From Escherichia phage EJP2: DNA of 64,000 bases. A model generated the notes under the pieces. That model had not been told where the DNA came from. It did no database searches and saw only the letters and a program-made list of their open reading frames with translations. Location of the stretch: sequence record OQ411014.1. One strand, written 5' to 3'. The position numbers were made by a program, and so were the translations under genes. Shown piece after piece: positions 1-64,000 of the stretch (position 1 is its first letter; each line of letters begins with the position of its first letter).

Positions 1-447
1 GTACAGGATGTACTAACTCGTGACGCTTTCAAAATTCACAATATGATGTTCAATATAAAAGAAGTCGTACAGTGCTTATTTTATTGTTCAAAGACTATGC
101 ATGACTTCTTTCATTCGGACATGTGTGATATGTTTGTGTGCACTGTAAATCGGGATGAGTCCTTTATTATGGGTATGCCAATGTCCGTGAATGCAGAGTA
201 CAATGAGTGCGTACTTCGTAATAACCCAGGTTCCTCACCACAACGCGATTTGCACGTGAAGAAGAATACGTACTGCATCAAGGGTGATGATATCGTTATA
301 ATGTTCTTGACAAAAGGTTTCATTCTTGATAACTTTACTGTCAAAGAGAGTTATCATGATTTCAGAGTTCAAGAAGATAATCCAACCGTTATGATCTATG
401 CATCTGATATAGAGAGTTTAGCGATGGATAATCCAGGAGTGATGTAG
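1..447 (+). CDS. hypothetical protein, possibly truncated at window edge
   Basis: Frame is open from base 1; first ATG at 43 (ORF track 43..447); stop TAG 445-447 overlaps the GTG of the next small ORF. Confidence 0.5.
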   Translation, partial: VQDVLTRDAFKIHNMMFNIKEVVQCLFYCSKTMHDFFHSDMCDMFVCTVNRDESFIMGMPMSVNAEYNECVLRNNPGSSPQRDLHVKKNTYCIKGDDIVIMFLTKGFILDNFTVKESYHDFRVQEDNPTVMIYASDIESLAMDNPGVM

Positions 448-593
448 TGAAAAAGAAAAGCCAAACTAATGTACCGGATGTTCGTAACTTCGTACACAAA
501 CATATGGAAACATTCAGTAAAGCACAGACATTCGTTGACCGTAAAAAAGACCAACGCAATGGCAAAAGAAAACATAAAGGGCAAGACTGGTAA
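447..593 (+). CDS. small basic protein, 48 aa (below ORF-track cutoff)
   Basis: GTG start in taGTGa overlap with upstream stop; AGGAG 8 nt upstream; K/R-rich product (V/M)KKKSQTNVPDVRNFVHKHMETFSKAQTFVDRKKDQRNGKRKHKGQDW; hairpin plus T tract follows. Confidence 0.4.
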   Translation: MKKKSQTNVPDVRNFVHKHMETFSKAQTFVDRKKDQRNGKRKHKGQDW

Positions 594-606
594 GTCTGCC
601 CTCTTT
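579..606 (+). terminator. candidate intrinsic terminator
   Basis: GGGCA(A)GACT-ggta-AGTCTGCCC, 9-bp stem with one bulge, followed by TCTTTAATT. Confidence 0.35.
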
Positions 607-627
607 AATTAACAACGTGAGGTTATC

Positions 628-1524
628 ATGTTTCTGAATTTCAAAGAGTACAGCCTTAAAGAATACATTGAAATGTTCAGGGCGTTCTTTAAAGACCAAA
701 GTACAGTACTGCCCTTTGAATACTCAATTGATCGGGATTATGCCAGGACTCTTGGGTATATTATCATGCACGTAGGTGGCATGACGTTCTTGACTATTAA
801 AGATAATGGTCAGTTCTACGTTACTGAAGATGATAATATAACTTATAGTTACAATCCGAGTAAAAATTCTGAAAAAATCGTTACTCCACGTATAGACGTC
901 AATAAGTTCATTTGTCCTAAGACTCTAAAATCAGAAATCACTCACAAAGTTATAGTACTGAAGAATCGTACGCACGCTAATACCGGAAACTCTATAACTG
1001 TAATGGTCAAAGACAAATACGATTATACACGTTCAGCATATAAAAATAGTCCAATAAGTAATAAGTACAGTAGTGGAGTACATAAAACATTATGTATTGC
1101 ATCTAGAATGACTATTTCTGAATACTACGATGAAAGCGAAAGTACATGCATCCAAAGTTCTATTAATATTTGGAGTGATACTCTAGCGAATTGTTATAGT
1201 ATAACATTACATGAAAATCAAGGAAAATCTGTTGGTAAGATCGGTATGAGTACTTTGCATCCAAAAAACACCAGTCGCTTTACTATTGCAGATGATATTG
1301 TACAGTCTTTGCCTGATTTATCTTTGAGTCATCTCTTTAGTAATGAAGAAATTTATTTCAAATTACTATTGACACTAGAGCCTGAAGCGTGTAGACTATT
1401 CGAATTGATTCATACTGAAAGTATTGCACTTCTGAATGAAACAATAAATGACTGTACTCCATCGGAACGGAGTCCAGTACTGAGAGATGTAATAAGAAAC
1501 TTATCTATCAAGGAAGAGGGATAA
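628..1524 (+). CDS. hypothetical protein (298 aa)
   Basis: ORF track; GAGG RBS 6 nt upstream; no motif recognised. Confidence 0.7.
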   Translation: MFLNFKEYSLKEYIEMFRAFFKDQSTVLPFEYSIDRDYARTLGYIIMHVGGMTFLTIKDNGQFYVTEDDNITYSYNPSKNSEKIVTPRIDVNKFICPKTLKSEITHKVIVLKNRTHANTGNSITVMVKDKYDYTRSAYKNSPISNKYSSGVHKTLCIASRMTISEYYDESESTCIQSSINIWSDTLANCYSITLHENQGKSVGKIGMSTLHPKNTSRFTIADDIVQSLPDLSLSHLFSNEEIYFKLLLTLEPEACRLFELIHTESIALLNETINDCTPSERSPVLRDVIRNLSIKEEG

Positions 1525-1525
1525 T

Positions 1526-1828
1526 ATGTATAAACTTGCGTTCAAGGATGGAATTGCAAAATACGCAACAATGGGCAATCGTCGAGTTCCAAGGAATGCT
1601 GAAACGATAACTCACCCAGATGGGACTACTATCTACATTGTTACTGCTACTAATGAACGAATGGCTACTGAACAGATAGTACTCCAAAGTAAGTTCGACC
1701 AGTCCAAAGTAAGTGCTCCGTACTTGCATTATGCGTACACACAGGAGATACTGGATATGGAGAACCCTGATATGTTCATGTTAGTACTGTTTGAATATGA
1801 CGAATGGCATAAACAAATTTTGTATTAA
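1526..1828 (+). CDS. hypothetical protein (100 aa)
   Basis: ORF track; starts 2 nt after upstream stop; GAGGG RBS. Confidence 0.65.
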   Translation: MYKLAFKDGIAKYATMGNRRVPRNAETITHPDGTTIYIVTATNERMATEQIVLQSKFDQSKVSAPYLHYAYTQEILDMENPDMFMLVLFEYDEWHKQILY

Positions 1829-1845
1829 CAATCCAAAAGATTTAC

Positions 1846-1874
1846 TTGACATTGTATCTGCACTTTGATATAAT
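1846..1874 (+). promoter_or_regulatory. sigma70-type early promoter
   Basis: TTGACA (1846-1851), 17-nt spacer, TGaTATAAT (-10 hexamer 1869-1874). Confidence 0.75.
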
Positions 1875-1905
1875 AGATGCACTTTACTAATAAGAGGTTT
1901 TATAA

Positions 1906-2286
1906 ATGAGTACACCTTCCGCTATTCTAAAATCAATCACTGGCGTTCTACTAATTGAGAAGAACGGTGAAGACAAGTTAGTGTGTATTGAGGACTTACG
2001 TTCTTCCAAGCACTTCAGCATCGGTCAACTATTCAATGCCATTCGCGTACTAAACAACAAGACTGTTCAACAGTACGGTGCAAAGTGGCCTCGTTCTGAT
2101 GTAGGTACTGAATGTAGTAATGATTGGCTCGCACTGAAAGCAGCGTACAAGAATTCCAATTCAGATTATGAGTTCTTGATTGAAGTATGTAATCAACTAC
2201 AAGAAACAGTACCTGAAGTTGTTGAACGTGAAAAAGTACTGAAACAATTAGAGAAGTTTCGTCACGGTACTCTAGTACTAGAATAA
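1906..2286 (+). CDS. hypothetical protein (126 aa), first gene after a strong promoter
   Basis: ORF track; GAGG RBS; consensus promoter 30 nt upstream. Confidence 0.75.
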   Translation: MSTPSAILKSITGVLLIEKNGEDKLVCIEDLRSSKHFSIGQLFNAIRVLNNKTVQQYGAKWPRSDVGTECSNDWLALKAAYKNSNSDYEFLIEVCNQLQETVPEVVEREKVLKQLEKFRHGTLVLE

Positions 2287-2356
2287 TATAAAATCTTTTG
2301 TTATAAACTAATCAATTCAAATCAAAAAAAATTATACGGATATAAGGAATACTAAA

Positions 2357-2683
2357 ATGGAAAATACTAAATTTGATATGTTTGCATCCCTAGAAGAACG
2401 CGAATTCGAAGTAGAAGAAGTACAAACTCTAGATGAGTCTGATATTGAACTACTAACCGCATCTGAAGATGAAGCAGAAGAAGTTGAAAAGAAACGTCCT
2501 GGTATGAACCGCATTTCTCGCAGTACTGAAGAGTACAATGAAATGATTGAAAGTTCACACTACGAAACTCTAACTCATCCTGTAAGTGGTGTTGAGTACT
2601 CTGTGAAAGTAACTGTCTTCAAACCTGAAGTGAACCCACAAGAGAATATGCGTCCTGCATACGCTTACAGTACTAACCACTAA
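2357..2683 (+). CDS. acidic hypothetical protein (108 aa)
   Basis: ORF track; AAGGA RBS; E/D-rich N-terminal half. Confidence 0.7.
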   Translation: MENTKFDMFASLEEREFEVEEVQTLDESDIELLTASEDEAEEVEKKRPGMNRISRSTEEYNEMIESSHYETLTHPVSGVEYSVKVTVFKPEVNPQENMRPAYAYSTNH

Positions 2684-2692
2684 GGGTATAAA

Positions 2693-3010
2693 ATGATTTA
2701 TGAAAGTGAAATAATTTATTTCGGAATTGGGATTCTTATTGCAGTAGTAGTGTACATTATGGTTATAGTTGCAGTGTTTCGATATGCATTTGCATTGAGT
2801 ACACGCAATAATGTTGATATCGATAACTATAATGTTGCACCTGGGCTACCGTTACTAGGGTCAGAAGACTTTCCGTGGATACTGACAGCGTTACTAAGTT
2901 TAGGTGGGTATTTTTTAGGACTTCAGTTAGTCATTATCGCATGGCCTCTAATGATATTCGTAATAATTCAGGTAATTATTTCATATTCTAGAAAGAAAAA
3001 CTTTTCATAA
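2693..3010 (+). CDS. small membrane protein (105 aa)
   Basis: Two or three long hydrophobic segments (IIYFGIGILIAVVVYIMVIVAVF, ILTALLSLGGYFLGLQLVIIAWPLMIFVIIQVII). Confidence 0.7.
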   Translation: MIYESEIIYFGIGILIAVVVYIMVIVAVFRYAFALSTRNNVDIDNYNVAPGLPLLGSEDFPWILTALLSLGGYFLGLQLVIIAWPLMIFVIIQVIISYSRKKNFS

Positions 3011-3017
3011 TCAAATT

Positions 3018-3048
3018 AGCACGGTACAATGTATCGTGCTATTTTTTT
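3018..3048 (+). terminator. intrinsic terminator
   Basis: AGCACG-loop-CGTGCT followed by a T7 run. Confidence 0.7.
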
Positions 3049-3068
3049 AACTAAACGAAGGAGAAGCA

Positions 3069-3866
3069 ATGAGAATCAAAGATATCAAAGATTACTCTCA
3101 TGCGACGAGAGCAGAAATCATCAGTATAGCCAAAAGCATACATCCACAATTACTGAACATCATCCAGTACCGAAGCCTTCAGGACGAATCCCTGTGTGAT
3201 AATCGTCTTACTGATATGTTCAATGAACAATTGCGTTCTAAAATCGATGCATATAAAATGCAGATGAAAGCAATGCGTACTCAGTACTTAGTAGAGTTCT
3301 TCGAGGATTATCTTCTTCTCGATGAAGGTTCTCCGTACGAGCACGACATGTACTATGGAATCGATTTGAACACAGGTAAGAAGCTCTCTAAGGCTTCGGA
3401 CTTCACTAACCCTACGTACGATGTGATTTATGTTCCAGAGGTTCAGAACGTCGTTGAGTGCGTTAATGCTATGCATACGTCTCATACTGACATTCGTCCG
3501 TTCTGGAATAAGAATTCATACACGATGTACAGTACTACAGAGCAGCATCACATCTATCCGTGCAAGAACGCAGAAGAGTTCATCAAGAGTGCACGTAAAC
3601 AATTCAGTACTTTACCTCATGAAAATGCTATCATGGATTTAGTTAGTACTGCTGCTAAGGTTCGGGACTTTGATTACCCACTACACTTCGCTGCGTTATC
3701 GTCTGGTGATGAGCGTTCGGTATATAGCAGTACTGTAATGAAATCCATTCAACGTCATCAAATCTTACGTGACTTCTTAGAAAGTGTTTACAGTCCTGAT
3801 GAAGTGTACTATACTAGTTCAGTTACAGAAGATGGGACATACAAGTTCTTTCCAAGCAATTACTAA
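3069..3866 (+). CDS. hypothetical protein (265 aa)
   Basis: ORF track; AGGAG RBS. Confidence 0.7.
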   Translation: MRIKDIKDYSHATRAEIISIAKSIHPQLLNIIQYRSLQDESLCDNRLTDMFNEQLRSKIDAYKMQMKAMRTQYLVEFFEDYLLLDEGSPYEHDMYYGIDLNTGKKLSKASDFTNPTYDVIYVPEVQNVVECVNAMHTSHTDIRPFWNKNSYTMYSTTEQHHIYPCKNAEEFIKSARKQFSTLPHENAIMDLVSTAAKVRDFDYPLHFAALSSGDERSVYSSTVMKSIQRHQILRDFLESVYSPDEVYYTSSVTEDGTYKFFPSNY

Positions 3867-3878
3867 CGAGGATATATA

Positions 3879-4736
3879 ATGCGTTTGAGATTGGTTATTT
3901 CCAGTGCAGATGATCAGTTGTGGGTTAGGCCAGCGGACAGTACTAGACGTGTTCGTCTACCATCAGTTCATGGTCATACCTTTATTGTTGAGAACAAACA
4001 ATCAACATTAGAAGAAGCCTTTCGTCTATTCATTGGTGATTATGAATGTAAGCCATTCAATGACTATCATTGCACTTATGAAGTTGTTGATATTCCTGAT
4101 GAGTACATGTTCCAGTTGGCACTATTAGGCGTTCATGAGATGGACTTCCTTGTGTACAATAACGTCACTAAGAAAATGGCAATTTGTTCAGCAGTACATT
4201 TGGCTGTTGAATATACAATGGCAACTAATTCCAAGGTAGGTTATAACCAATCTTCTTATCGTAATAGTACTGCTACTACTAACGATGTTGTATTCCAGTG
4301 GGAGTACAAAAGTGACGAGTGGAAGACTAAGAACGATGATGTTACTGTTCATACAGTACTGGATAGTACTTATGATAATATCTATCAGTACATTGAGCCT
4401 AACCTAATGGAATGGGCTTGTAGGATGTACAGTAACATTGCTGATACTTTACGTCCTAGAGTTTATGGGTTCAAGAACTGGAAAAGTAAGATTGATACAT
4501 CTGATGAACCAGTAGCGTATGAAAAGTCCTACCCGTACTATAACTTCAGTGATTTATATTTCCTGTTCAATCAGTACTGCAACGATGAAGCGATGTTTTT
4601 GTACGCACAGGATGTAATCTCCGATTCAGCAATTGAGATATTGCGTGAACTGTACTGTCATTGTCAGTTTATCAGTACTAACATTCAGGTCGGCAAGGAT
4701 TACATAAAATTCTGTGATGAAAGAAGATCACGATAA
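3879..4736 (+). CDS. hypothetical protein (285 aa)
   Basis: ORF track; GAGGA RBS. Confidence 0.7.
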   Translation: MRLRLVISSADDQLWVRPADSTRRVRLPSVHGHTFIVENKQSTLEEAFRLFIGDYECKPFNDYHCTYEVVDIPDEYMFQLALLGVHEMDFLVYNNVTKKMAICSAVHLAVEYTMATNSKVGYNQSSYRNSTATTNDVVFQWEYKSDEWKTKNDDVTVHTVLDSTYDNIYQYIEPNLMEWACRMYSNIADTLRPRVYGFKNWKSKIDTSDEPVAYEKSYPYYNFSDLYFLFNQYCNDEAMFLYAQDVISDSAIEILRELYCHCQFISTNIQVGKDYIKFCDERRSR

Positions 4737-4737
4737 T

Positions 4738-4767
4738 TTGAGCATTCATAAAAAAATGTGATATAAT
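4738..4767 (+). promoter_or_regulatory. sigma70-type promoter driving RNA locus A
   Basis: TTGAGC (4738-4743), 18-nt spacer, TGTGaTATAAT (-10 hexamer 4762-4767); same architecture as the promoter at 58672. Confidence 0.65.
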
Positions 4768-4773
4768 TAGTAC

Positions 4774-5312
4774 TACGGATGGTTAGCTATCCGTATTTTA
4801 AATTTGAATGACCAGTACTACATACTGGTACGTTTTAACCCTGATTCACTCGAAAATGTAGAGGACAGTTGAGTACGCATTCAAGTACGTTCAGCAGAAG
4901 AAACCCGTTAGGTGTAGGCATAGTTTGTACCTCCCACGGCAATGTGGCTGATTAAACCATGAAGAGTAATACGATGACTCATGGCTTGCTTATGGCATGA
5001 TAGACATATAAGGATCGCTCCTTACCAAAATGTATAAGGGAATCTTATAAATTTTTGTAGGACTGATTAGAGGCTTACCCTTGATCCGTCCAAAATTTGA
5101 AGATACAGTACAGTACTGTTTATGTGGTAATGTATTGATGCGTGCTAAGACCACGACCGTTGCATAGAAACGCGATAGGAAGAAACAGGGCAACCCGCTT
5201 CCGTTCTTAATAGAAATTCGTAACATAAAATGATGACACATACCAGCGTCAAACTTTGTTCTTCCCTCCCTGTGGGGGGATGAAAATGAATCTACAAAAC
5301 CTCGTCAAATAA
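4774..5312 (+). ncRNA. candidate novel structured ncRNA, copy A (ends approximate)
   Basis: About 740 nt without a credible ORF and GC-richer than the flanks. Shares ordered blocks with 58708-59229, e.g. CCTGATYCACTCGAAAATGTAGAGGRCAG at 27/29 identity, GAAACCCGT, CACGACCGTTG, TACCAGCGTCA, CCCTCCC-tgt-GGGGGGA and ACCTCGTCAA. Hairpin GGAAG-15 nt-CTTCC (5178-5202) covaries with GCTGG-15 nt-CCAGC in copy B. Confidence 0.6.
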
Positions 5313-5324
5313 TAATAAGAAAGT

Positions 5325-5456
5325 ACTAAATCAATTAGAACGAACGCTAGTGAGTGATAATTGATTTAGTAACAGTAACGCTTCGCTAGAAGTGTTACTC
5401 GTTGTTTAAGAATAAAATAACTTAGTGAGTTTTGGTTCTTTTGTTGTTCACTAAGT
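5325..5456 (+). other. three strong stem-loops between RNA locus A and the next gene
   Basis: 12-bp stem 5325-5336/5359-5370; about 11-bp stem 5374-5399 with a GCTA loop; 9-bp stem 5420-5428/5448-5456; none followed by a U tract. Confidence 0.5.
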
Positions 5457-5476
5457 CCCTATAGAGAGAATATTAG

Positions 5477-5998
5477 ATGCCAGTGAAATATAAATCCCTT
5501 GATGGTGTTGTGAAGTACAAAGATCAAATGACTGAACAGGAATTACAAGAGTTCAGTGGGTACAAAATCGAGGGCAGTGCGGCACGTATTTCATACATTG
5601 AAGAGTACAAAGACGGAGATTTACTAGGGAAAATTATCCTTAGAATGACAAAAGCCCCAATCATATTTCGGGTAGTATACAAGGGATATAATGAAATTCG
5701 GTACAATACTGGAAGTGTTTCATCTAGATATTGCAGTAATGGTGATGTTTTTTGTGGTGAAATGCTGAGATATGATATGAATGGGAAGCTACAGGTTCGG
5801 GACTTTTTGAATCTAGGCAAGAACGTAACTGATGATATTGTTACTGAATTTGGTATCTCTGATATACTACAGCATGAATTTACAGAAGAAGAGTTATTCC
5901 GACTCTATATGAAATACGATTCAGGATTTAGATTCGTATCGGAATATAATAGAACTCCTGAACACTTCGATTCAGTACTGAAGGCGTGTTTGGAATAA
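5477..5998 (+). CDS. hypothetical protein (173 aa)
   Basis: ORF track; weak RBS. Confidence 0.65.
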   Translation: MPVKYKSLDGVVKYKDQMTEQELQEFSGYKIEGSAARISYIEEYKDGDLLGKIILRMTKAPIIFRVVYKGYNEIRYNTGSVSSRYCSNGDVFCGEMLRYDMNGKLQVRDFLNLGKNVTDDIVTEFGISDILQHEFTEEELFRLYMKYDSGFRFVSEYNRTPEHFDSVLKACLE

Positions 5999-6013
5999 TA
6001 GGATATACAATTC

Positions 6014-6532
6014 ATGGATGATAAAAAATCAAAGATGGATATACACTTTTCATCTAAAGCTCAAACTTGGAATACTCCAAGAGATTTATGGAATAAAATA
6101 AATGCAGTATGGAAGTTCACTCTAGATGCTGCGTGTTTAGAAAATAGTGCCTTGTGCGAAAAGTACTTCACTCCTGAAGACGATTCATTAGAACAGGACT
6201 GGGGTGATAACATAGTATGGCTTAACCCACCCTATAACGACCTCAAGACTTGGCTATCGAAGGCAGTACAGGAATATAAGAAAGGCTCTACAGTTGTCAT
6301 TCTGGTCCCTTCTAGGACGGATACAAAGGCATTCCAGGACTATGCTTCTAAAGAATGTTCGTGTATTTGTTTTATTAAGGGAAGACTCAAGTTCTTTGAT
6401 CCAGCTAGACCACCTGATGCGAGGGCAGACCCAGCACCATTCCCTAGCTGTTTGATAGTACTGGATGATGATCTTACACAAGAGAAAATCGATTTTCTAA
6501 AAACTCTAGGTCAGGTAATGAAGAATGTCTAA
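6014..6532 (+). CDS. DNA N6-adenine methyltransferase (phage Dam-type)
   Basis: HFSSKAQTWNTPRDLW N-terminus, catalytic NPPY (VWLNPPYND), LVPSRTDT, RLKF, APFPS; pattern of the phage N6A methylase family. Confidence 0.85.
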   Translation: MDDKKSKMDIHFSSKAQTWNTPRDLWNKINAVWKFTLDAACLENSALCEKYFTPEDDSLEQDWGDNIVWLNPPYNDLKTWLSKAVQEYKKGSTVVILVPSRTDTKAFQDYASKECSCICFIKGRLKFFDPARPPDARADPAPFPSCLIVLDDDLTQEKIDFLKTLGQVMKNV

Positions 6533-7064
6533 ACGCTGTGTCTTTATGTTCGGCAGAATGAACCCGTGCCACCTCGGACACGGGAAAGTATTTGAAAAAG
6601 CACTACAACTAAAGGATAATGAAACTGATGTGAAGTTGTTCCTTAGTGCTTCGTTTGATCCTAAAAAGAATCCACTACCAAGAGAAGTTCGTCAGTACTA
6701 CATATCTGAGTTCTTCCCTGAAATAAAAGATTCTATACAAGATACAAACATAAACAATTTATTTGATATAATGAAATCACTTGATACTTATTATAGTGAT
6801 GTAATATTCGTAGGTGGTTCAGACAGGGCGAGTTCCTTCCAAGAACTACTACTGAAGTACAATAACAAACAGTACTCATTCGATTCTATCAGTACTGTAC
6901 TAGCTGGAACATCAAGAGAAGAATCTATGTTCAGTTCTACTCTAATGCGTAATGCAGTACAGAAGGACGATTTCAGTACTTTCAAGATATGTCTCCCTGG
7001 GGATAATGAATACTTGAAGTACGATATGTTCGCTGGTGTAAAGAAGTACATGAAAAATATTTGA
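6525..7064 (+). CDS. HxGH-motif nucleotidyltransferase (cytidylyl/adenylyltransferase family)
   Basis: N-terminal FGRMNPCHLGHGKVFEKAL, i.e. the (H/T)xGH signature; substrate unknown. Confidence 0.55.
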   Translation: MSKRCVFMFGRMNPCHLGHGKVFEKALQLKDNETDVKLFLSASFDPKKNPLPREVRQYYISEFFPEIKDSIQDTNINNLFDIMKSLDTYYSDVIFVGGSDRASSFQELLLKYNNKQYSFDSISTVLAGTSREESMFSSTLMRNAVQKDDFSTFKICLPGDNEYLKYDMFAGVKKYMKNI

Positions 7065-7089
7065 CACCTATCTATAGCCATGATACTAT
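7061..7089 (+). promoter_or_regulatory. sigma70-type promoter
   Basis: TTGACA (7061-7066), 17-nt spacer, TGaTACTAT (7084-7089), ahead of ATG 7124. Confidence 0.55.
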
Positions 7090-7123
7090 ATGTACATGGC
7101 TATTTCTATATGAAGGTACTATA

Positions 7124-7678
7124 ATGAAAGCAAAAGATCTGTTTGATATGGTTCACTCCAATCGTAAGCACCAATTGAATATTAATAGATCATTCAAGTT
7201 TGGTCACATGGATGTTACATATATAAAGTCATTTGGTTCTGATTTATTCTTGGTTGAGCTTGCTCAAGCTGGTAAATCTAAACGAGTATGTGAAATAATC
7301 TATTGTCCTCTCGAAGAAGAAAATGATACTTATGTTCCAGTTAAAGTATTTGATACTAAAGTCAAATTATCCAAGACTGAAATTGAGTTTGGTTTTCCGG
7401 TGGATGAAAAATTGAAGGATACAATTCGGTTTGTTCCGACTGATTTCAAAACTCCAGCATTTGATATAGACTTCAGTACTGAAGAATCGGCTTCACAAGC
7501 TATGTTCATTCATGATTTCGACCCCAAGAACTGTGAGTACCTAATGGCGGCTACACGTGCATTACAAGAAGTGTACCACCAGCCTGGATATGGGTACATG
7601 ATTATTTCGAGTACTTCTCCGGCATTACTGTGTGATGTACTAGGGATTGAAGTCCAAGTAGGAGTATACAATGCGTGA
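7124..7678 (+). CDS. FQAS-motif paralogue family member
   Basis: Start moved from 7061 (TTG, inside the promoter) to ATG 7124, giving MKAKDLFDMV; C-terminal motif EESASQAMFIHDFDPKNCEYL. Confidence 0.7.
   Translation: MKAKDLFDMVHSNRKHQLNINRSFKFGHMDVTYIKSFGSDLFLVELAQAGKSKRVCEIIYCPLEEENDTYVPVKVFDTKVKLSKTEIEFGFPVDEKLKDTIRFVPTDFKTPAFDIDFSTEESASQAMFIHDFDPKNCEYLMAATRALQEVYHQPGYGYMIISSTSPALLCDVLGIEVQVGVYNA
7471..7484. repeat. example of the over-represented AGTACT palindrome (14-bp perfect palindrome)
   Basis: CTTCAGTACTGAAG; one of several hundred AGTACT-centred sites (27 counted by hand in bases 1-6000). Confidence 0.9.
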
Positions 7679-8222
7679 TAAAGTTCAACACATATTGAAT
7701 TGTATGCAGAAGAAAGTTCACGTTCAGAATGATGTACTTGATATGCAAGTATATACAATTCTATCTTCAGAAGATGGCGTGTTTAGTTCAACTATTCGAT
7801 GCCGCAATAAAAATAGCGGTTCCTTTACTATTATGCTAAGGAAGAAGACTGAAATGATTACTGCTCCTAGTTCAGTACTGGGACAAAACGACACATACAA
7901 TACAGTTTACACTTCTCTTGCAATGAAGATGGCAATCTTCTGTACGCATGGTAATCCCCTACACATTGTTCGTGGGGATAGTACAATAGGTGATGATGTC
8001 GTTCAGGATTTGAGTGACGAAGGTTTCTTTCGCTTGTTATTGGCAGTTGACCCGAAGTATAATATCGATATAGATGGGTACAAGCAGGTTCTTGAAATGA
8101 TTTATGCATTCGAAGAAGTAGTACCTGAAGATTGGACTATTGTTATTAGCTCACCATTAGATAATTTACATTCAATAGATGTTGATTCTATCTATTCAGT
8201 ACTGAAGGATGTCGTAGTATGA
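7671..8222 (+). CDS. FQAS-motif family member (divergent)
   Basis: 8-nt overlap with upstream gene; SDEGFFRLLLAVDPKYNIDIDGY sits where the family motif occurs. Confidence 0.65.
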   Translation: MRDKVQHILNCMQKKVHVQNDVLDMQVYTILSSEDGVFSSTIRCRNKNSGSFTIMLRKKTEMITAPSSVLGQNDTYNTVYTSLAMKMAIFCTHGNPLHIVRGDSTIGDDVVQDLSDEGFFRLLLAVDPKYNIDIDGYKQVLEMIYAFEEVVPEDWTIVISSPLDNLHSIDVDSIYSVLKDVVV

Positions 8223-8788
8223 ATGCCGCAGAGTTTGTTAGAGCACTTGTTGGTTTAGCTAAAGTGAAAACTTATAGAGGAAATATCACTAAATCAAATT
8301 CGCATTTTGTTCCACGTAATGGTCGTGAACATCTATTCGTTGATTCATTACTCATCAAGGGTATCGATGCATATGAAGAAATATACATTTCTATAGATAT
8401 GTGTGATGGATTCTTGAATTCCATTGCAGTTCATACAAGAAATAGATATACTCATTTCTCTATGTACAGAAAAACGGCATACACAGAGTATGATAAGTAC
8501 GCAATGGAAGAAACCTCCCCAGGGCGTTTCCTTATGCTTTTTCACAATGAAATTACCGAGCGTGATTTAATCATGAATCACAAGGGTGAATTTATTGTGC
8601 ACATGGACAATGAAAGTGAAGTGTTCAGTACTTTATTAGTACATAACTTCGATATAGAAAAGTACAGAGAAATTCATGAAACCTATAAGTGCATTGATGA
8701 ACTTAAAACTGACCTCTCATTCAGTACATATGATACTAATTGTGGTCTGAATTTCGCAGCACTATATCAAATTATATGGAAGGCATAA
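8219..8788 (+). CDS. FQAS-motif family member
   Basis: ATGA overlap; motif ESEVFSTLLVHNFDIEKYREI. Confidence 0.7.
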   Translation: MNAAEFVRALVGLAKVKTYRGNITKSNSHFVPRNGREHLFVDSLLIKGIDAYEEIYISIDMCDGFLNSIAVHTRNRYTHFSMYRKTAYTEYDKYAMEETSPGRFLMLFHNEITERDLIMNHKGEFIVHMDNESEVFSTLLVHNFDIEKYREIHETYKCIDELKTDLSFSTYDTNCGLNFAALYQIIWKA

Positions 8789-9309
8789 TGACTGCACTAA
8801 ATGATTTCATGACTCTCAGTACTGAAATAGTATCTTCTACAAAGGGAGAAATCACAATCCCCCGTGATGATGTATATATTATACTAACACCAGGAATAGC
8901 AGAGTCCATAAAAGTATACGAAAATAATGATTCTTTACAAGTACTGTACATGCCACAAGATTATCTTTTTGTAAATTCTGATTTTACTTTACATCAATTT
9001 CCTACGTATAGTAATTTTCAACAACGTTTCCCAAGTGATAAAACAAAAGAAATAAAATACGTACAGTACGATAATAGTTTTAAAAGTCGTACTCATTTTA
9101 TCGCTTTAGAAACTGAAGAAGATATATTCAATGCTATGATAGTACATTCATTTGATATAAACGCAGCACTAGAATTGATGAGTGTATTGACTGAAGTACC
9201 GGAAGATGTAACAGGTATTATTACTATAAGAACTAAGTACAATGAAGAATTGTTACTAAAGTGCAACAGTATGATGCGAGATTATATTAGTAATAAGGAA
9301 AACACATGA
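8788..9309 (+). CDS. FQAS-motif family member
   Basis: Start taken at TAATG overlap (MTALNDFMTL); motif EEDIFNAMIVHSFDINAALEL; close paralogue of 9306..9836. Confidence 0.7.
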   Translation: MTALNDFMTLSTEIVSSTKGEITIPRDDVYIILTPGIAESIKVYENNDSLQVLYMPQDYLFVNSDFTLHQFPTYSNFQQRFPSDKTKEIKYVQYDNSFKSRTHFIALETEEDIFNAMIVHSFDINAALELMSVLTEVPEDVTGIITIRTKYNEELLLKCNSMMRDYISNKENT

Positions 9310-9836
9310 CAGTACTGAATGATTTTCTTAGAGATAGTAAGTACATTATTGATAATATTGCTGAAGAAATATCTATACCATCAATGGATGAGTTGATGAT
9401 GATATCAATGGACCCTGATGGTGGGTTGGTAAAAGTATATTACGATTTTGAACTGCACGTAATGTTCATGAAAAATCATTATGAACACGCTTCTGATATG
9501 TTGACACTTTATGATTTTGGGACGCATAAAAATTACCAACAACGTTTACCAGCAAACAAATCAAAGGATATGAAACTAAGTGTTTACAATTCTGCTGGTG
9601 TTACTATTCCGACTAAGATTTCTCTTGGTTCTGAAGAGGGAATCTTTTCTGCGGAATTAGTACATGATTCCAGTACTGAAGAAGCACTTGAAGTTATGCA
9701 AGTAATTTCTGAAGTACCTGACAGTACCAAAGGAATACTTACTATAAGAAATAAGTACAACGAACGATTACTTATAAAATGTAATGTGTTATTAGAACAA
9801 TATATACATGGAGTACTGAATGCAAATATGGTATAA
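9306..9836 (+). CDS. FQAS-motif family member
   Basis: ATGA overlap; MTVLNDFLRD; motif EEGIFSAELVHDSSTEEALEV; tail ILTIRNKYNERLLIKCN matches IITIRTKYNEELLLKCN of the upstream gene. Confidence 0.7.
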   Translation: MTVLNDFLRDSKYIIDNIAEEISIPSMDELMMISMDPDGGLVKVYYDFELHVMFMKNHYEHASDMLTLYDFGTHKNYQQRLPANKSKDMKLSVYNSAGVTIPTKISLGSEEGIFSAELVHDSSTEEALEVMQVISEVPDSTKGILTIRNKYNERLLIKCNVLLEQYIHGVLNANMV

Positions 9837-10113
9837 TGTAGTACAGAAGGATTGGGATGATAATGAAAAGACAGGGATGCGTTTCATTTCTGTTATCATT
9901 TCGAATGAAACTCGTTATGTTCTACGAGCGGATAAGAATGATGGCGTATGGGAATCATCTTTGTATCCAATGGGTTACAAATATTCTTTAGATGATGTTG
10001 CAAGTCTAGCTGATTCTATGATAGACTCAGTAAAGATTATGAAGTTCCTTGAACGTCCAGAGCTAACAACGGCTGATGATGTACAGGAATTTTTGGCGAC
10101 TTTACAAGGGTAA
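9820..10113 (+). CDS. hypothetical protein (97 aa)
   Basis: ORF track; overlaps upstream gene end. Confidence 0.6.
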   Translation: MQIWYNVVQKDWDDNEKTGMRFISVIISNETRYVLRADKNDGVWESSLYPMGYKYSLDDVASLADSMIDSVKIMKFLERPELTTADDVQEFLATLQG

Positions 10114-10115
10114 TT

Positions 10116-10634
10116 ATGAAACTTTCTGACTTCATTGCACGCAAAGATTCGTTCAAAAATGGCGTTTTTCATCAAGTAGAAGGTACTGACTTTACATATA
10201 TCAGTACTAGTATTGGATTGGGAGAAGCATCGAGTATCGTATCTTTTTATACAAAAGAAACACTTGCTATATGTGATTTTGTATTTTCAACTAAACATTA
10301 TAATACCACAGACAATGCAATTATGTTCGATGCAAACTCAGTGAATGATGCTTGGTGTGTATATTTTTCTTATCCAAATACAAATGAAAATATAGTATTA
10401 TTCTTGGATGATTCAGAAGATAACGAGCCACCAGTACTGGTAGATATCTCATCAGAAGCGGATATCTTCACTAAAGCAGTAGCATTCGATATAAATTGTG
10501 ATGGTATTGAAGAGTACATTTCGATTTCCAAAGCAATCGAAAAAATTGCCAAGGATTTGGGATTACCGGAATTTACTCTAGAACTTCGTCACAATAAACT
10601 GAAGGAATTTCTTGAGATATTTGAACTATGCTAA
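10116..10634 (+). CDS. FQAS-motif family member
   Basis: MKLSDFIARK; motif EADIFTKAVAFDINCDGIEEY. Confidence 0.65.
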   Translation: MKLSDFIARKDSFKNGVFHQVEGTDFTYISTSIGLGEASSIVSFYTKETLAICDFVFSTKHYNTTDNAIMFDANSVNDAWCVYFSYPNTNENIVLFLDDSEDNEPPVLVDISSEADIFTKAVAFDINCDGIEEYISISKAIEKIAKDLGLPEFTLELRHNKLKEFLEIFELC

Positions 10635-10873
10635 TAATTGACAATTTAGACATACCTGGTGAATTCGAAGTACTCGAAGGGATTAGTATGAGTACGTTCG
10701 TAATAAAAAGTACTGAAGCGTGGGTGAAAAAACACTTGACTGAATTAGGGTTATCCGATACACTACACTTCTTTAGTTACAGTACTGGAGATTTAGTTTT
10801 AGAATCGACAAGAGCGAGGATTACGAGTTTAAGTTCTAAGCGATTTTATGTTGAATTTATGGAAGGAGAATGA
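10628..10873 (+). CDS. hypothetical protein (81 aa)
   Basis: ORF track; overlapping starts and stops on both sides. Confidence 0.55.
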   Translation: MLIIDNLDIPGEFEVLEGISMSTFVIKSTEAWVKKHLTELGLSDTLHFFSYSTGDLVLESTRARITSLSSKRFYVEFMEGE

Positions 10874-11442
10874 CAATGATCAATAGTAATACTTATATGC
10901 GTTACCTACGTATGGGCGTTTCTTTAGTTCCAGTTCGTGGAAAAGATTCAGTAGACCAAGAGTTCGCATATGCGATGCCTATTGATGGTGTACAGTACGT
11001 ACTGAACGATGGTGGTATGTACGAAGATACAAATGAGTCCGAAGACATGTCTGATATGCTTCAGAACTTATTAGCAGTAGTCAATAGTGACCGTCATGAT
11101 AAAGTAAAACGCGTTACTACGTTCCTGGAAAAGAATCTACACAAAACTGTTTGGTGTGAGATTGCTTCTGGACCACAACTGGGTTTGCTATTCGGGAACG
11201 CAGATGGTACAATTTGTCAATTAGCGATGGATTTCCGTTCTCCAGAGCAGTTCCAAGAGTACCGTGCATCTATCATCGAACACTTTGCAGCACTCGGTCT
11301 TGACGAATCTAAGATTCCAGAAATTAGTCCAATGGATACATTTGTACTGATTCCTGAGAGTCCAGCATTCGAAGCACTATTCAGTACTTTCCAGTGCTTA
11401 GGGATTGAAGTAAGTCCAGCAGATGTAGATGATGAAGAATAA
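10870..11442 (+). CDS. acidic hypothetical protein (190 aa)
   Basis: ORF track; ATGA overlap. Confidence 0.65.
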   Translation: MTMINSNTYMRYLRMGVSLVPVRGKDSVDQEFAYAMPIDGVQYVLNDGGMYEDTNESEDMSDMLQNLLAVVNSDRHDKVKRVTTFLEKNLHKTVWCEIASGPQLGLLFGNADGTICQLAMDFRSPEQFQEYRASIIEHFAALGLDESKIPEISPMDTFVLIPESPAFEALFSTFQCLGIEVSPADVDDEE

Positions 11443-11520
11443 TTAGTACTGTATATGTATACACCTTTACGATAAAGTCTTAAATATCTGAAGGTGTATA
11501 TTGTCATAGGAGGAAAAGTT

Positions 11521-11724
11521 ATGAAATATTCATTGATTCGTTTAGGATTATTTGTTACAGTAGTCTTAATGGTTGTGATTGGTTCAGTACTGACACAGTT
11601 ATACCCTGCGTTTATTTTACTCGCTGGGATTTTTGGTTCAGTACTGATTGGGCTGGTGGGTTGGGCTTTGCAGCTTACCATCGATGCGGAATTAGAAAAG
11701 AGGATTAAAGATAAAGATGAATGA
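11521..11724 (+). CDS. small membrane protein (67 aa)
   Basis: AGGAGG RBS before ATG 11521; two hydrophobic helices. Confidence 0.65.
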   Translation: MKYSLIRLGLFVTVVLMVVIGSVLTQLYPAFILLAGIFGSVLIGLVGWALQLTIDAELEKRIKDKDE

Positions 11725-11890
11725 TAAAGGTGAAGAGGAAGTCTTCTGTACTGCGTGCAATCTGTACGTACAACCTGAATACAGTTCGTACTCATGTATT
11801 TCACAGTACGGTTCATCAGTGTTCTGTAAAGAACTCTGTCCTATTTGTTATAAACAATTTCGGGAATTTTTAGTCGATGCAGACATTTGA
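11717..11890 (+). CDS. small zinc-ribbon protein, 57 aa (below ORF-track cutoff), TRASH/FCS-like C-x2-C-x22-C-x3-C
   Basis: MNDKGEEEVFCTACNLYVQPEYSSYSCISQYGSSVFCKELCPICYKQFREFLVDADI; fills an otherwise unexplained gap; overlaps both neighbours by a few nt. Confidence 0.5.
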   Translation: MNDKGEEEVFCTACNLYVQPEYSSYSCISQYGSSVFCKELCPICYKQFREFLVDADI

Positions 11891-13716: not shown

Positions 13717-13771
13717 TAATAGATTCAAAAAAATTTATAAAAGTGCAAATAATCACAAGGAGTGTGAATAT

Positions 13772-14515: not shown

Positions 14516-14546
14516 GCAGTACTGCGATTGTAGTACTGCTTTTTTC
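14516..14546 (+). terminator. intrinsic terminator built from two AGTACT motifs
   Basis: GCAGTACT-gcgattgt-AGTACTGC followed by TTTTTTC. Confidence 0.75.
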
Positions 14547-19253: not shown

Positions 19254-19263
19254 TTTCAAATAC

Positions 19264-19293
19264 AGTACTGCTATTGTGGCAGTACTTTTTTTG
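19264..19293 (+). terminator. intrinsic terminator built from two AGTACT motifs
   Basis: AGTACTGC-tattgtg-GCAGTACT followed by a T7 run. Confidence 0.75.
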
Positions 19294-57122: not shown

Positions 57123-57124
57123 CG

Positions 57125-59354: not shown

Positions 59355-59765
59355 ATGAGTCAGTTAGAACCAATTGTAGGATCTTATAATATTTTCTTCA
59401 AAGATACCAATGTAACACCAAGCAGTTCATATAACCAAAATACACGTGTAAGTACTTACACAATTGAGCATTTAAGTACTGGCAAGAATTTCAGTACTGA
59501 ATACGGGAAGTACGTCCAGAAGAACTCCGATTGTTTTCAGCTATTTCGTAACTCCCCACGTCAAGATATTTTACTAATCACAAACGAAGTGGAGTTCCGT
59601 CAAAGATCTCTTGATTTCCCTAATGCAGTTCATTATACTATTAGTGATATCGACTTCATCAAAGTACTTGTTCATTACGACGAAGTATCAAAGGTAAGTA
59701 CTTTTGAGGATTTGTCTTTTGATGAAGTAATTGCACTCAAGGATAAACTATATGAAAGCAAGTGA
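59355..59765 (+). CDS. hypothetical protein, weak FQAS-family resemblance
   Basis: AGGAG RBS; EVEFRQRSLDFPNAVHYTISDIDF at the family motif position. Confidence 0.6.
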   Translation: MSQLEPIVGSYNIFFKDTNVTPSSSYNQNTRVSTYTIEHLSTGKNFSTEYGKYVQKNSDCFQLFRNSPRQDILLITNEVEFRQRSLDFPNAVHYTISDIDFIKVLVHYDEVSKVSTFEDLSFDEVIALKDKLYESK

Positions 59766-61178: not shown

Positions 61179-61625
61179 ATGAGCGATTTTGATGCAGCAG
61201 TAGATATGCGTAACATACTGGATTACATGGATGATACAGTACAAGAGAACGGTTCTTCTGAACTACTTGAGTTCGTTGAGGATTGTATCTTTTTGGAATC
61301 ATTGAGTCACCACTGGCACTTACAGTGTAAGATTTATTCCAAACATATGGAACTCGATGAACTATACAAAGAAATTGGTGAATACGTTGATTCCTTCATT
61401 GAAGGACTAATGAGTACTCGTGGTGTTCTACCTATGGTATCGGAGAAGCAATACTTCTTCGTAGGATTAGATCAATGTATTCCAGTACTGGAACAGTACG
61501 TACAACAAGCTAAAGTCATCCATGAGATGTTAGCTGCTGAAGATGATTTCGGTTCAGTGAATAGTATTGAAGACATTATTAGTTTTCTAGAACGTACTCT
61601 TTACAAACTGAAGTGTCTAGACTAA
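61179..61625 (+). CDS. Dps/ferritin-like four-helix-bundle protein
   Basis: SLSHHWHLQCKIYSKHMELDELYKEIGEYVDSFIEGL parallels the Dps pattern (FHW...G..F..H..lde.Y.el...vD.iAEr). Confidence 0.5.
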   Translation: MSDFDAAVDMRNILDYMDDTVQENGSSELLEFVEDCIFLESLSHHWHLQCKIYSKHMELDELYKEIGEYVDSFIEGLMSTRGVLPMVSEKQYFFVGLDQCIPVLEQYVQQAKVIHEMLAAEDDFGSVNSIEDIISFLERTLYKLKCLD

Positions 61626-62281: not shown

Positions 62282-62516
62282 GATTTATGAAGAATACCGA
62301 GACGTGTGGCGTAATGCTGATTACAGTATAGTACGCCGCAAACGTCTACTGGAATTATTTGATAAGGGTCTTGTAATTGTGGTGAACACGAAGCATTGTC
62401 CACAACTAAAACAGGATGCGGATTTGAAAAAGTTGCTCAAGGATGGTAAACTAGAACAGTTCAATATCAGAGAGAGTAAGAATTTCAAGAGGACATATCT
62501 AAGAAGGAAGCCATGA
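62253..62516 (+). CDS. hypothetical basic protein (start uncertain, TTG in track)
   Basis: ORF track; overlaps the upstream gene by 29 nt; no ATG near the 5' end. Confidence 0.4.
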   Translation: MRISIIEINEIYEEYRDVWRNADYSIVRRKRLLELFDKGLVIVVNTKHCPQLKQDADLKKLLKDGKLEQFNIRESKNFKRTYLRRKP

Positions 62517-62517
62517 T

Positions 62518-63072
62518 ATGGCAAAACTACAATTTACATATGCAGCAATGAATTGCGGTAAAAGTACTGCACTATTACAAACAGCTTATAACCTAAGTAA
62601 TATTGGAAAGAAAGTACAATACTACACATCAGCACTTGATGACCGATATGGTTATGGTAAAATTACTTCCAGAATTGGTCTGTCCGAAGAAGCTATGGTC
62701 ATTCCTAAAGATGACTTTTCAGTACTGAATGATATCATTACTGATTACAATGAAGGTACTGAACCTTTTGCAATTTTCGTTGATGAATGTCAGTTCTTGA
62801 ATACAAATCAGATTGACAAATTGGCGTATATCGCTGATAATTGCAATGTAGCCGTATATTGTTATGGACTCAGGACTGATTACAGTGGTGTACTCTTTGA
62901 GGGTTCTAAACGTCTCTTTGAGTTAGCTGATGACTTACATGAGCTAAGTAACAACTGTCAATGTGGTGCTAAGGCTACGATGACAAAGCGACTAAATGAC
63001 AGTACTGAACAAGTACTGATTGGTGATAATGACATGTATCAATGCGTATGCAGAGCGTGTCACAAGAAATAA
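62518..63072 (+). CDS. tdk: thymidine kinase
   Basis: P-loop AMNCGKST; VDECQF; C-terminal Zn motif CQCG...CVCRAC. Confidence 0.92.
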   Translation: MAKLQFTYAAMNCGKSTALLQTAYNLSNIGKKVQYYTSALDDRYGYGKITSRIGLSEEAMVIPKDDFSVLNDIITDYNEGTEPFAIFVDECQFLNTNQIDKLAYIADNCNVAVYCYGLRTDYSGVLFEGSKRLFELADDLHELSNNCQCGAKATMTKRLNDSTEQVLIGDNDMYQCVCRACHKK

Positions 63073-63081
63073 GGACAACAT

Positions 63082-63330
63082 ATGATTAGTTACAAAGACA
63101 TTATCTTTGCAGTACTGAAGCGTTTCAAAAATGAAGTACTTGATGAGTTTGATGACCGTACTCTGTTCAAACTATTAGCGTACTGTACTGCTGCATTTGT
63201 AGTATTCTCTTTTGTACCAGGGTGGGCTATTGTTGTTGCACTTCTGATTGGTTGGGTTACTTACATCGTTGACCGTTCACAAGACGCAAAGACTTGGGCT
63301 GAACATGAAAAAGATGTTGACGAAGAATAA
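63082..63330 (+). CDS. small membrane protein (82 aa)
   Basis: Central hydrophobic hairpin AAFVVFSFVPGWAIVVALLIGWVTYIV. Confidence 0.6.
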   Translation: MISYKDIIFAVLKRFKNEVLDEFDDRTLFKLLAYCTAAFVVFSFVPGWAIVVALLIGWVTYIVDRSQDAKTWAEHEKDVDEE

Positions 63331-63350
63331 AAAATAACATACACTTAAAA

Positions 63351-63376
63351 GGTGCTACAGATGTAGTGCCTTTTTT
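63351..63376 (+). terminator. intrinsic terminator
   Basis: GGTGCTAC-agat-GTAGTGCC (two G-U pairs) followed by TTTTTT. Confidence 0.65.
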
Positions 63377-63390
63377 CTTAGGAGAGTACT

Positions 63391-63870
63391 ATGTGGTTAT
63401 TTCTATTTTGTTTGATAATGGCATTTGCAACAGTGCAATTGTTCTTTGAGATGGTACATTCTGGTGTATTCGGAGATAGATTGTACTTCAAGGTGAAGTT
63501 TATTGGATTTGATGTAAACACTGAGCGTTCACAGGTGATCCGTACATTAATAATGATGTATCATTCTGGTAAGTACAAAATTGAACTGAACAAGCAGACA
63601 TTATATTTCATCCAAGAAGGCGAGAACAGTACTGAATACATTGTGGAGTGCTTACATGTAAGTGATGTGAATTCATATAAGTACGGACGTTTTGCTGGTA
63701 TTACTAGTACTACAATGGATAACCGAGGCATAATTGATTTCGACACTCGGATGATGTTGTATGATATTGTTGCTGAAGCAAAAGAGCCTGAACCACCAGC
63801 AGATGTTCCAACTTACCAGTACTCAAACTTGAAAGGTTTCTTTGCCCCTAAACAGGATATCGAATTATGA
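63391..63870 (+). CDS. hypothetical protein with N-terminal TM helix (159 aa)
   Basis: MWLFLFCLIMAFATVQLFF; AGGAG RBS. Confidence 0.65.
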   Translation: MWLFLFCLIMAFATVQLFFEMVHSGVFGDRLYFKVKFIGFDVNTERSQVIRTLIMMYHSGKYKIELNKQTLYFIQEGENSTEYIVECLHVSDVNSYKYGRFAGITSTTMDNRGIIDFDTRMMLYDIVAEAKEPEPPADVPTYQYSNLKGFFAPKQDIEL

Positions 63871-64000
63871 TTATTGAATATGTAATTGCAATGTGTACTG
63901 CGAGTGCTGTAGCACCGTTGGGTTCTTATATTCTGTACCAGAATCGTGAAGTTATTTCGCGTAAACTGGGTAAACTCTTCGGTACTAAAAAGCTGATTGA
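63867..64000 (+). CDS. hypothetical protein, 3' truncated by window edge
   Basis: ATGA overlap start; MIIEYVIAMCTASAVAPLG...; still open at base 64000. Confidence 0.45.
   Translation, partial: MIIEYVIAMCTASAVAPLGSYILYQNREVISRKLGKLFGTKKLI

Follow-up and report, generated by a model that had tools for sequence, protein, structure and literature searches.

AGTACT, a hyper-abundant palindrome in Escherichia phage EJP2, related jumbo phages and a family of Escherichia and Pseudescherichia prophages

An over-represented palindrome in the EJP2 window

The palindrome AGTACT is heavily over-represented in Escherichia phage EJP2, of which a stretch of 64,000 nucleotides (record OQ411014.1; the window) was analysed here. 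The window comes from a relative of Erwinia phage Hallingskeid, inside the ~350-kb RaK2/GAP32/121Q/CBB/BF clade of jumbo myoviruses. It holds 105 called genes, 100 of them on the plus strand, and is 91.6% coding. The features central to the argument are the palindromic sites, a methyltransferase (MTase)-like gene and the gene that overlaps it:

1..64000: dispersed AGTACT sites; the perfect palindrome spans 6 bp at 148 sites, 8 bp at 94, 10 bp at 21, 12 bp at 16, 14 bp at three and 16 bp at one
6014..6532, plus strand: orphan DNA N6-adenine-methyltransferase-like gene with an NPPY motif (Pfam PF05869, E=1e-28; TIGR01712 below cutoff)
6525..7064, plus strand: cytidylyltransferase-like gene (PF01467), overlapping the MTase gene by 8 nt

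AGTACT occurs 283 times in the 64,000 bases (4.42/kb) and ranks first among hexamers, followed by CAGTAC (198) and GTACTG (195); its extended forms CAGTACTG and TCAGTACTGA are present in 102 and 21 copies, respectively. At a GC content of 37.4%, the expected count is 21.2 from base composition, 23.9 from dinucleotides and 63 from a second-order chain. An earlier, sequence-only reading of this DNA had put the excess at about 10-fold and that of GTAC at 4-5-fold; the former is real and larger (13.3-fold over composition), while the latter is smaller (690 vs 218 expected; 3.2-fold). Its hand count of 27 sites in bases 1-6000 is exact, and the density it reported to the end of the window is seen in every 4-kb bin (13-25 sites each). 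The 'RNA loci' in which it also placed sites gave no tRNA or Rfam match; none, sought also as a source of codon supply, was found in the window.

Codon usage and protein sequence explain only a fraction of these sites. Genes contain 261 copies of AGTACT, compared with 66.0 +/- 6.8 when synonymous codons are shuffled within genes (maximum 86 in 300 shuffles; z=28.5) and 33.1 +/- 5.6 when codons are permuted (z=41), excesses of ~4-fold and ~8-fold; the synonymous null already carries the inflated AGT, ACT and GTA usage and inflated Ser-Thr content of these genes. For CAGTACTG, 97 copies in coding sequence compare with 10.1 and 1.5 under the same two nulls. All three codon phases are used, as had been noticed, with 129 sites read as AGT-ACT, 34 as nAG-TAC-Tnn and 98 as nnA-GTA-CTn (synonymous-shuffle means 38, 10 and 18), so that every phase reaches 3.4-5.3 times its mean. 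Non-coding DNA has nearly the density of coding DNA (4.09 vs 4.45/kb). The encoded proteins are enriched in the dipeptides ST (1.89 times expectation), VL (1.43) and QY (1.71), in agreement with the sequence-only reading, whereas the reversed pairs TS (0.98), LV (0.95) and YQ (0.71) are not, and 129 of the 178 Ser-Thr dipeptides are spelled AGTACT where codon usage predicts 32. A dispersed repeat of the REP or MITE type, or a repeated protein motif, was rejected as a source, given that flank identity among the 283 sites is the same as that among random positions. The codon-aware shuffles, dipeptide asymmetry and unique flanks together rule out a codon or dipeptide artefact.

The selected unit is short and symmetric. 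C precedes about 55-56% of sites and G follows 54%, irrespective of codon phase and also in minus-strand genes and spacers; beyond these positions there is only a weak T-rich/A-rich tendency that carries little information. After background correction, this C/G pair is the most over-represented flank in every lineage examined (1.5-3.3-fold), and the A..T flanks that seemed specific to the BF, GAP32 and XaC1 lineages proved to be an artefact of AT content. As the flanks add so little beyond the adjoining base, the unit is 6-8 bp, the size of a restriction/modification site and not of a 12-16 bp operator. One-mismatch variants are themselves enriched when the deviation is at an outer position (NGTACT 2.4-2.8-fold vs 1.1-1.8-fold for inner variants; over three genomes, NGTACT/AGTACN 2.4-3.9-fold vs 0.8-2.1-fold), and no neighbour is depleted (none below 0.77-fold).

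Sites in the window lie on average 224 bp apart and are spaced more regularly than random (CV, the coefficient of variation, 0.81; P<0.0005), the largest gap being 899 bp (P=0.0015). Counts per gene are under-dispersed, no gene is depleted, and neither clustering nor helical periodicity of close sites was seen. Only short-range regularity was measured, periodicity over 10-90 kb of the type associated with HIP1 (the cyanobacterial palindrome considered below) being beyond the reach of a 64-kb window. Pairing of copies 18 bp apart, which would form the LexA (SOS) box TACTG-N10-CAGTA, occurs at background level (6 pairs among 1833 pooled sites). The extension of some sites to longer palindromes, including one of 14 bp at 7471-7484, is borne out; in addition, TTCAGTACTGAA is present in ten copies dispersed over the window. 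The longest palindromes are:

7471..7484: 14-bp perfect palindrome CTTCAGTACTGAAG
16457-16470 and 61480-61493: two further 14-bp palindromes
59446..59461: 16-bp palindrome GTGTAAGTACTTACAC, the longest, of which the inner 12 bp satisfy the SlmA-binding rule (GTRAGYRCTYAC)

This accumulation occurs in a genome that otherwise purges palindromes. Phages are a textbook case of palindrome avoidance, and the sequence-only reading had pointed to this generality; it holds strikingly here, with 26 of the 64 palindromic hexamers absent from the window (summed expectation 172) and GCGC found nowhere (0 vs 77 expected in the window; 0 vs 526 in 549 kb of clade sequence). Observed/expected ratios in the window are 0.21 for TTAA, 0.22 for GGCC and 0.38 for GATC; for GCGC the ratio is 1.14 in Pseudomonas phage PA5oct and 1.96 in E. 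coli. The loss of GCGC and other palindromes may be a means of avoiding either host restriction or a nuclease that the phage itself encodes against host DNA. Bases are not globally replaced in the clade member fEgEco12, ten enzymes cutting its DNA normally (PMC13070987).

Conservation in the jumbo-phage clade and recurrence in prophages

The bias is a property of the whole clade. Among about 20 genomes sampled (Hallingskeid, GAP32, BF, Munch, XaC1, RaK2, phiKp_21 and ~15 IMG/VR contigs), AGTACT ranks first among hexamers in nearly all and close to first in the others, at 1.8-4.6/kb, and the pooled sequence contains 1868 sites in 549 kb vs 182 expected (10.3-fold). Outside the clade it is absent: PA5oct, which the literature counts among the relatives of the clade, has no site in 15 kb, and four outgroup contigs with ligases 31-35% identical have only 0-2, counts that fall below expectation, as is usual for palindromes. 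Host DNA has AGTACT at or below chance frequency (about 0.07-0.2/kb).

Sites are conserved more strongly than other hexamers. In relatives at 70-86% nucleotide identity, 50-75% of AGTACT sites are kept, vs 15-48% of other hexamers and 9-45% of control palindromes (nine jumbo-phage pairs, in which some loci overlap, so that counts are not fully independent). In orthologues at ~50% amino acid identity, most positions have turned over, with 17-23% of sites in common vs 4-11% for generic hexamers. When codons whose first two bases are unchanged were compared with the same codon elsewhere, the third base was retained more often inside the motif than outside it for AGT (.97/.88), ACT (.91/.73), GTA (.92/.71) and TAC (.79/.60; all p<1e-3). 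Polarisation of triplets with an outgroup showed that 20% of ancestral AGTACT sites were lost vs 31% of other hexamers, and that transitions creating a site (10/158) were six times as frequent as alternative transitions at the same positions (2/200; p=0.007). Equivalent tests were used to argue for selection on HIP1 (Xu, Lawrence and Durand 2018, PMC5861425), and for AGTACT they give the same answer, selection.

Given the codon shuffles, non-coding density, symmetric flanks, dipeptide asymmetry and conservation at synonymous positions, the conclusion that the bias acts at the level of DNA and moulds the proteins, as the sequence-only reading had proposed, is supported. Of the outcomes by which that reading could have been overturned in silico, the reverse was found in each case: shuffles miss the observed count, a handful of recurring motifs does not account for the sites, and relatives keep the bias. 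(C)AGTACT(G) is thus very probably a hyper-abundant palindrome that selection on double-stranded DNA itself keeps dense and fairly evenly spread, and can with considerable confidence be regarded as the phage counterpart of cyanobacterial HIP1 and not as a by-product of coding, repeats or composition.

A second AGTACT-rich lineage was recovered when IMG/VR was scanned for three clustered sites. The scan returned a 31.8-kb contig of siphovirus type, with a lambda-J-like tail tip, whose top hexamers are again AGTACT, CAGTAC and GTACTG, and all 22 relatives of this contig have 1.5-3.8 AGTACT/kb. The carriers are prophages of Escherichia sp., Pseudescherichia vulneris and E. coli FDN-24, 31-40 kb in length and with a GC content of 0.37-0.44, that favour CAGTACTG and almost lack GCGC (our loci L093 and L158-L183). 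Enrichment ends sharply at the prophage borders, with 0-1 site per 15 kb in adjoining host DNA and, in the pooled host flanks, six in 34 kb, which is about chance. The best-defined members and modules are:

L183:1862-35200 (FDN-24, NZ_CP158147 1174080-1207400): complete E. coli prophage copy, 33.4 kb, GC 0.38
L183:4936-5439, L157:4087-4830, L122:6134-6787 and L007:6097-6726: AP2-like module

The complete E. coli prophage encodes a serine recombinase, lambda-like head and tail genes, a SegE-like GIY-YIG gene and an AP2-like gene derived from an HNH endonuclease; no replication gene was recognisable in it with Pfam or PHROGs. Its tetranucleotide profile correlates with that of the jumbo clade (r up to 0.67-0.71) far better than the profile of PA5oct does. 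A tblastn search of all prophage open reading frames (ORFs) against 818 kb of jumbo-phage sequence found only the AP2-like module of HNH origin in common, and thirteen other accessory prophage proteins, concatenated, had no match in 50,697 phage records. The AP2-like module corresponds to the C-terminal portion of HNH-endonuclease families in PHROG; its sporadic occurrence makes mobility probable, and the window has no copy. The idea that the prophage is a satellite was rejected, as no T4-type late promoters were found upstream of its structural genes. A non-coding stretch of the same prophage (L183:5983-6684) has iteron-like TTCGCATAAT/ATTATGCGA repeats together with dense GTAC-containing words, and may be an origin or operator region. 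The same 8-bp form and the loss of GCGC in unrelated prophages point to a shared reader or a shared threat, and offer a natural comparison for finding the reader.

A candidate methyltransferase mark and its rivals

The sequence-only reading had listed a dimeric DNA-binding protein, a target of modification or nicking and a Chi- or USS-like signal as candidate functions, and as candidates all of these are reasonable. Ranked by the present evidence, a mark set by a methyltransferase comes first and a non-enzymatic binder next, followed by neutral drive and a catalytic site, which are about equal.

The MTase-like gene at 6014-6532 is a candidate writer of such a mark at (C)AGTACT(G). Together with the cytidylyltransferase-like gene it forms a pair that is present in 68/68 full-length matches, all of them in jumbo-clade records (one, of 46.8 kb, is a partial RaK2-like sequence), and an IMG/VR search for relatives of the MTase likewise returned clade members only. 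Alignments to proteins from outside the clade are confined to the catalytic core, which makes the C-terminal ~45 residues clade-specific. No relative with a solved structure was found, and no Vsr- or MutH-like gene adjoins the MTase gene. In the RaK2-like phage phiKp_21 (L186:123-2499), the pair is flanked on both sides by HNH-derived AP2-like genes that lack the HNH part.

It is possible, though tentative, that the sites mark the whole genome for an enzyme of the restriction/modification type, which would recognise its short target on both strands; the likeliest such enzyme is this MTase. The enzyme would write a private epigenetic tag at a density roughly that of Dam/GATC in E. coli, where GATC occurs about 4 times per kb. 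Readers of the tag would tell phage DNA from host DNA, and might tell old from new strands in protection, repair or replication-coupled functions. Selection would keep every position no more than a few hundred bp away from a tagged site; a need of this kind would produce even spacing, the lack of long gaps, purifying selection, favoured creation of sites and a price paid in amino acids.

Several observations count for the link with the MTase. The full-length enzyme is confined to the clade; PA5oct lacks AGTACT, and the paper on that phage makes no mention of methylation; GATC is depleted to 0.38 of expectation; and a genome that purges palindromes could tolerate 690 GTAC and 283 ScaI-type sites only if these are protected or harmless. 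By analogy, the bias of one-mismatch variants towards outer positions may also fit, such a pattern having been tied to methyltransferases that recognise the inner sequence of HIP1 (Elhai 2015, PMC4390886).

Other observations weigh against this reading. The distribution of many other core genes also follows that of the trait, which makes the association with the MTase correlative. Family PF05869 is best known for GATC. Phages with homologues of the MTase core (Lactococcus 3R16S, Proteus P59) have no AGTACT excess, and no methyltransferase was recognisable in the complete E. coli prophage with Pfam or PHROGs. GGTACC is absent from the window (0 vs ~7.6 expected), which argues against a general protection of GTAC. 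In some relatives (Munch, RaK2) the sites are spaced with little or no regularity, and no reader protein for the tag was identified.

Somewhat less probable than a methylated mark, yet a serious rival, is a non-enzymatic protein of twofold symmetry, of phage or host origin, that coats, compacts, protects or organises the phage DNA, methylation being irrelevant. Such a binder could act in the nucleoid or in packaging, or form a coat that protects the DNA as 'self'. It would suit a palindromic symmetry that extends into the flanks, the even coverage of sites and the graded enrichment of near-cognate sites, which behaves as binding energy would; moreover, two unrelated lineages, one of them without a detectable MTase, have the same 8-bp form, which favours a common and possibly host-side reader. 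However, 6-8 bp of information is short for a typical dimeric helix-turn-helix (HTH) or ribbon-helix-helix (RHH) operator, the sites show neither clustering nor helical periodicity, and the only genes found in both lineages are the sporadic, probably mobile AP2-like genes, which the window lacks. SlmA, the sole known enterobacterial binder of the AGTACT core, does not fit.

A neutral drive, in which sequence-specific mismatch repair or biased gene conversion restores the palindrome without benefit to the phage, is unlikely. The model corresponds to methylation-dependent repair as put forward by Elhai for HIP1 (PMC4390886), or to the effect of Vsr on CCWGG. Restoring repair would mimic the conservation of sites and is compatible with the favoured site-creating transitions, the conserved orphan MTase and the HIP1-like outer-position pattern of single-nucleotide deviants (PMC4390886). 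It is harder to reconcile with regular spacing and missing long gaps, neither of which a site-autonomous process predicts, with a prophage family that resides in host chromosomes free of the bias, and with the lack of a Vsr- or MutH-like neighbour of the MTase. Very-short-patch repair of the CCWGG type was rejected: it needs a depleted T:G-derived neighbour, whereas the deamination product AGTATT/AATACT stands at 1.12-1.32 times expectation in three genomes and no other neighbour is depleted. For HIP1 itself, conservation has been read as favouring selection over repair (PMC5861425).

Similarly improbable is a catalytic role, with AGTACT as the site at which a phage type II topoisomerase or a site-specific nickase cleaves or nicks with a 4-nt GTAC stagger, thereby seeding recombination-dependent replication, loading clamps for T4-type late transcription or decatenating a 350-kb genome; a variant would make it a primase context. 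Twofold symmetry about a 4-bp core with symmetric flanks, high and even density, and the T4-like replication, recombination and late-promoter logic of the clade all suit this proposal, and other phages, among them T5 and Pseudomonas phage tf, are known to carry nicks at specific sites. Nevertheless, no sequence evidence ties any enzyme to AGTACT, primases need no palindrome, and the prophages have the motif without a T4-like replication and late-transcription apparatus or T4-type late promoters.

A broader proposal, which we consider speculative and rather doubtful, treats the abundance of AGTACT and the absence of GCGC as a two-palindrome code of self and non-self, with its own jumbo-phage machinery and convergence of prophages on it. 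The machinery would destroy or shut off host DNA bearing GCGC while sparing, replicating or organising DNA tagged with (C)AGTACT(G), and unrelated Escherichia and Pseudescherichia prophages would have converged on the code to survive or exploit jumbo-phage infection. Prophages and jumbo phages have in common the tetranucleotide signature and genes of homing-endonuclease type.

A role in RNA is very unlikely. Here the self-complementary AGUACU or CAGUACUG would pair within plus-strand transcripts, structuring or stabilising AU-rich mRNAs and forming terminators. Apart from the location of 100/105 window genes on one strand, the proposal draws on two terminator-like hairpins built from paired motif copies:

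14516..14545, plus strand: stem of two motif copies (GCAGTACTGC ... GTAGTACTGC), then a U-run; -16 kcal/mol, z=-4.5; just downstream of an ORF ending at 14506
19262..19293, plus strand: stem of two motif copies (ACAGTACTGC ... GCAGTACT), then a U-run; -19.1 kcal/mol, z=-6.1; downstream of an ORF ending at 19253

However, only a handful of site pairs lie at hairpin distance, pooled pair distances have no short-range excess, density is unchanged in minus-strand genes and spacers, and an RNA signal needs no perfect DNA palindrome with symmetric flanks; a role in RNA was also rejected for HIP1 (PMC5861425). Hardly credible, finally, is hijacking of the host nucleoid-occlusion protein SlmA (site GTGAGTACTCAC) to block host division over phage DNA: the 6-bp core is identical and most known hosts are Enterobacterales, which have SlmA, yet its site rule of G1, T2, purine 3, A4, G5 and pyrimidine 6 in a 12-bp palindrome (PMC3020112) is at odds with phage sites that prefer C at position 3 (55%) and use G least (9%), that extend to GT.AGTACT.AC in 2/283 cases (chance) and that never present the full consensus.

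Known systems, significance and additional observations

The nearest precedent is HIP1 (GCGATCGC) with the alternate HIPs of cyanobacteria (Elhai 2015, PMC4390886; Xu, Lawrence and Durand 2018, PMC5861425). Like these, AGTACT is a short palindrome that is over-represented (10-300-fold for HIPs) in all reading frames and in non-coding DNA, is conserved above control palindromes with its constituent codons more conserved inside the motif, has enriched one-mismatch variants that deviate mostly at outer positions, and co-occurs with an orphan methyltransferase. The defining traits of the class in frames and non-coding DNA, conservation and outer-position deviants are thus all present. For abundance, which the class sets at about 15-fold or more for the commonest oligomer, AGTACT was judged to belong, its 13.3-fold excess in the window being slightly under the 15-fold bound for HIP1-rich genomes. 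In contrast to HIP1, it sits in phage rather than cellular genomes, is an AT-rich word of 6-8 bp (AGTACT or CAGTACTG) rather than a GC-rich octamer, and lies in a genome that otherwise purges palindromes; in addition, one of its carrier lineages has no detectable MTase, and the jumbo-phage MTase is only a candidate. AGTACT therefore belongs with the HIP-type palindromes, and what is new is the occurrence in phages, the different word and the palindrome-purging background.

Other systems are less alike. Dam/GATC also combines a palindrome at about 4/kb with an adenine methyltransferase, represented in the window by a small orphan enzyme of the 'phage Dam' family, and a need for a nearby site would give even coverage in both; however, GATC is at chance frequency in E. 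coli whereas AGTACT is raised 13-fold, no MutH-, MutS-, MutL- or SeqA-like reader was identified for AGTACT, and its methylation is putative. Chi, the uptake sequences USS/DUS and KOPS are likewise short oligomers selected genome-wide and inside genes, serve a DNA-processing machine and mark 'self'. They are asymmetric and orientation-biased, whereas AGTACT and its flanks are perfectly palindromic and so can have no polarity, by which a signal of this type was rejected; the density of AGTACT is 10-20 times that of Chi, and no RecBCD-, uptake- or FtsK-type partner is indicated for it. The SlmA site shares the central AGTACT, is palindromic and is recognised as double-stranded DNA in Enterobacterales, but the phage sites lack its outer GT/AC determinants and have the wrong base at position 3, and E. 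coli has only tens of SlmA sites per chromosome. Finally, AGTACT is the type II recognition sequence of ScaI and Eco255I, and the remainder of the genome shows textbook site avoidance; for this one site the sign is reversed, and it is accumulated.

No report of an AGTACT, GTAC or ScaI bias in these phages was found in open-access text, which covered no GAP32 genome paper; the genome papers of RaK2, CBB, PA5oct and fEgEco12 do not mention one. That the trait is clade-wide, that it recurs in unrelated prophages without a detectable MTase and that HIP1 is its nearest precedent go beyond the sequence-only reading. This phage purges palindromes while driving one ScaI-type site to the top of its hexamers, pays for that site in amino acids and conserves it across genera; the implication is that a whole clade of jumbo phages, under development for therapy and biocontrol, has a function at the DNA level that had gone unrecognised. 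The palindrome also gives the ~30-year HIP1 puzzle a small, fast experimental system, in which the motif can be recoded, a single orphan MTase can be removed or expressed, and fitness can be read in hours. The density of AGTACT with the absence of GCGC provides a sharp compositional marker for such elements in metagenomes and for prophage boundaries.

Three further observations were made. A 60-kb contig (L059; IMGVR_UViG_3300017648_000055) that encodes collagen-repeat, alpha/beta-hydrolase and TPR proteins, and has no match to known phages, is 11-fold enriched in AGTACT (49 in 14 kb); the excess comes partly from repeats and is partly dispersed, and occurs alongside CTGTAC/TGTACT. Many other matches from the IMG/VR scan were discarded as tandem or collagen-like repeats and not dispersed enrichment. 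The non-coding stretch 4737-5476, upstream of the MTase cassette, is the best-conserved DNA in the first 20 kb of the window, with 77-80% identity to Salmonella, Klebsiella and Cronobacter jumbo phages and 92% over 53 bp to Xanthomonas phage XaC1; it has no tRNA or Rfam match, and may be an undescribed RNA or regulatory region. Positions 5477-16866 hold a long run of ORFs of ~170-230 amino acids without family matches, which is syntenic with runs in Hallingskeid, GAP32, BF, Munch and XaC1 and looks like an expanded array of paralogues typical of the clade.

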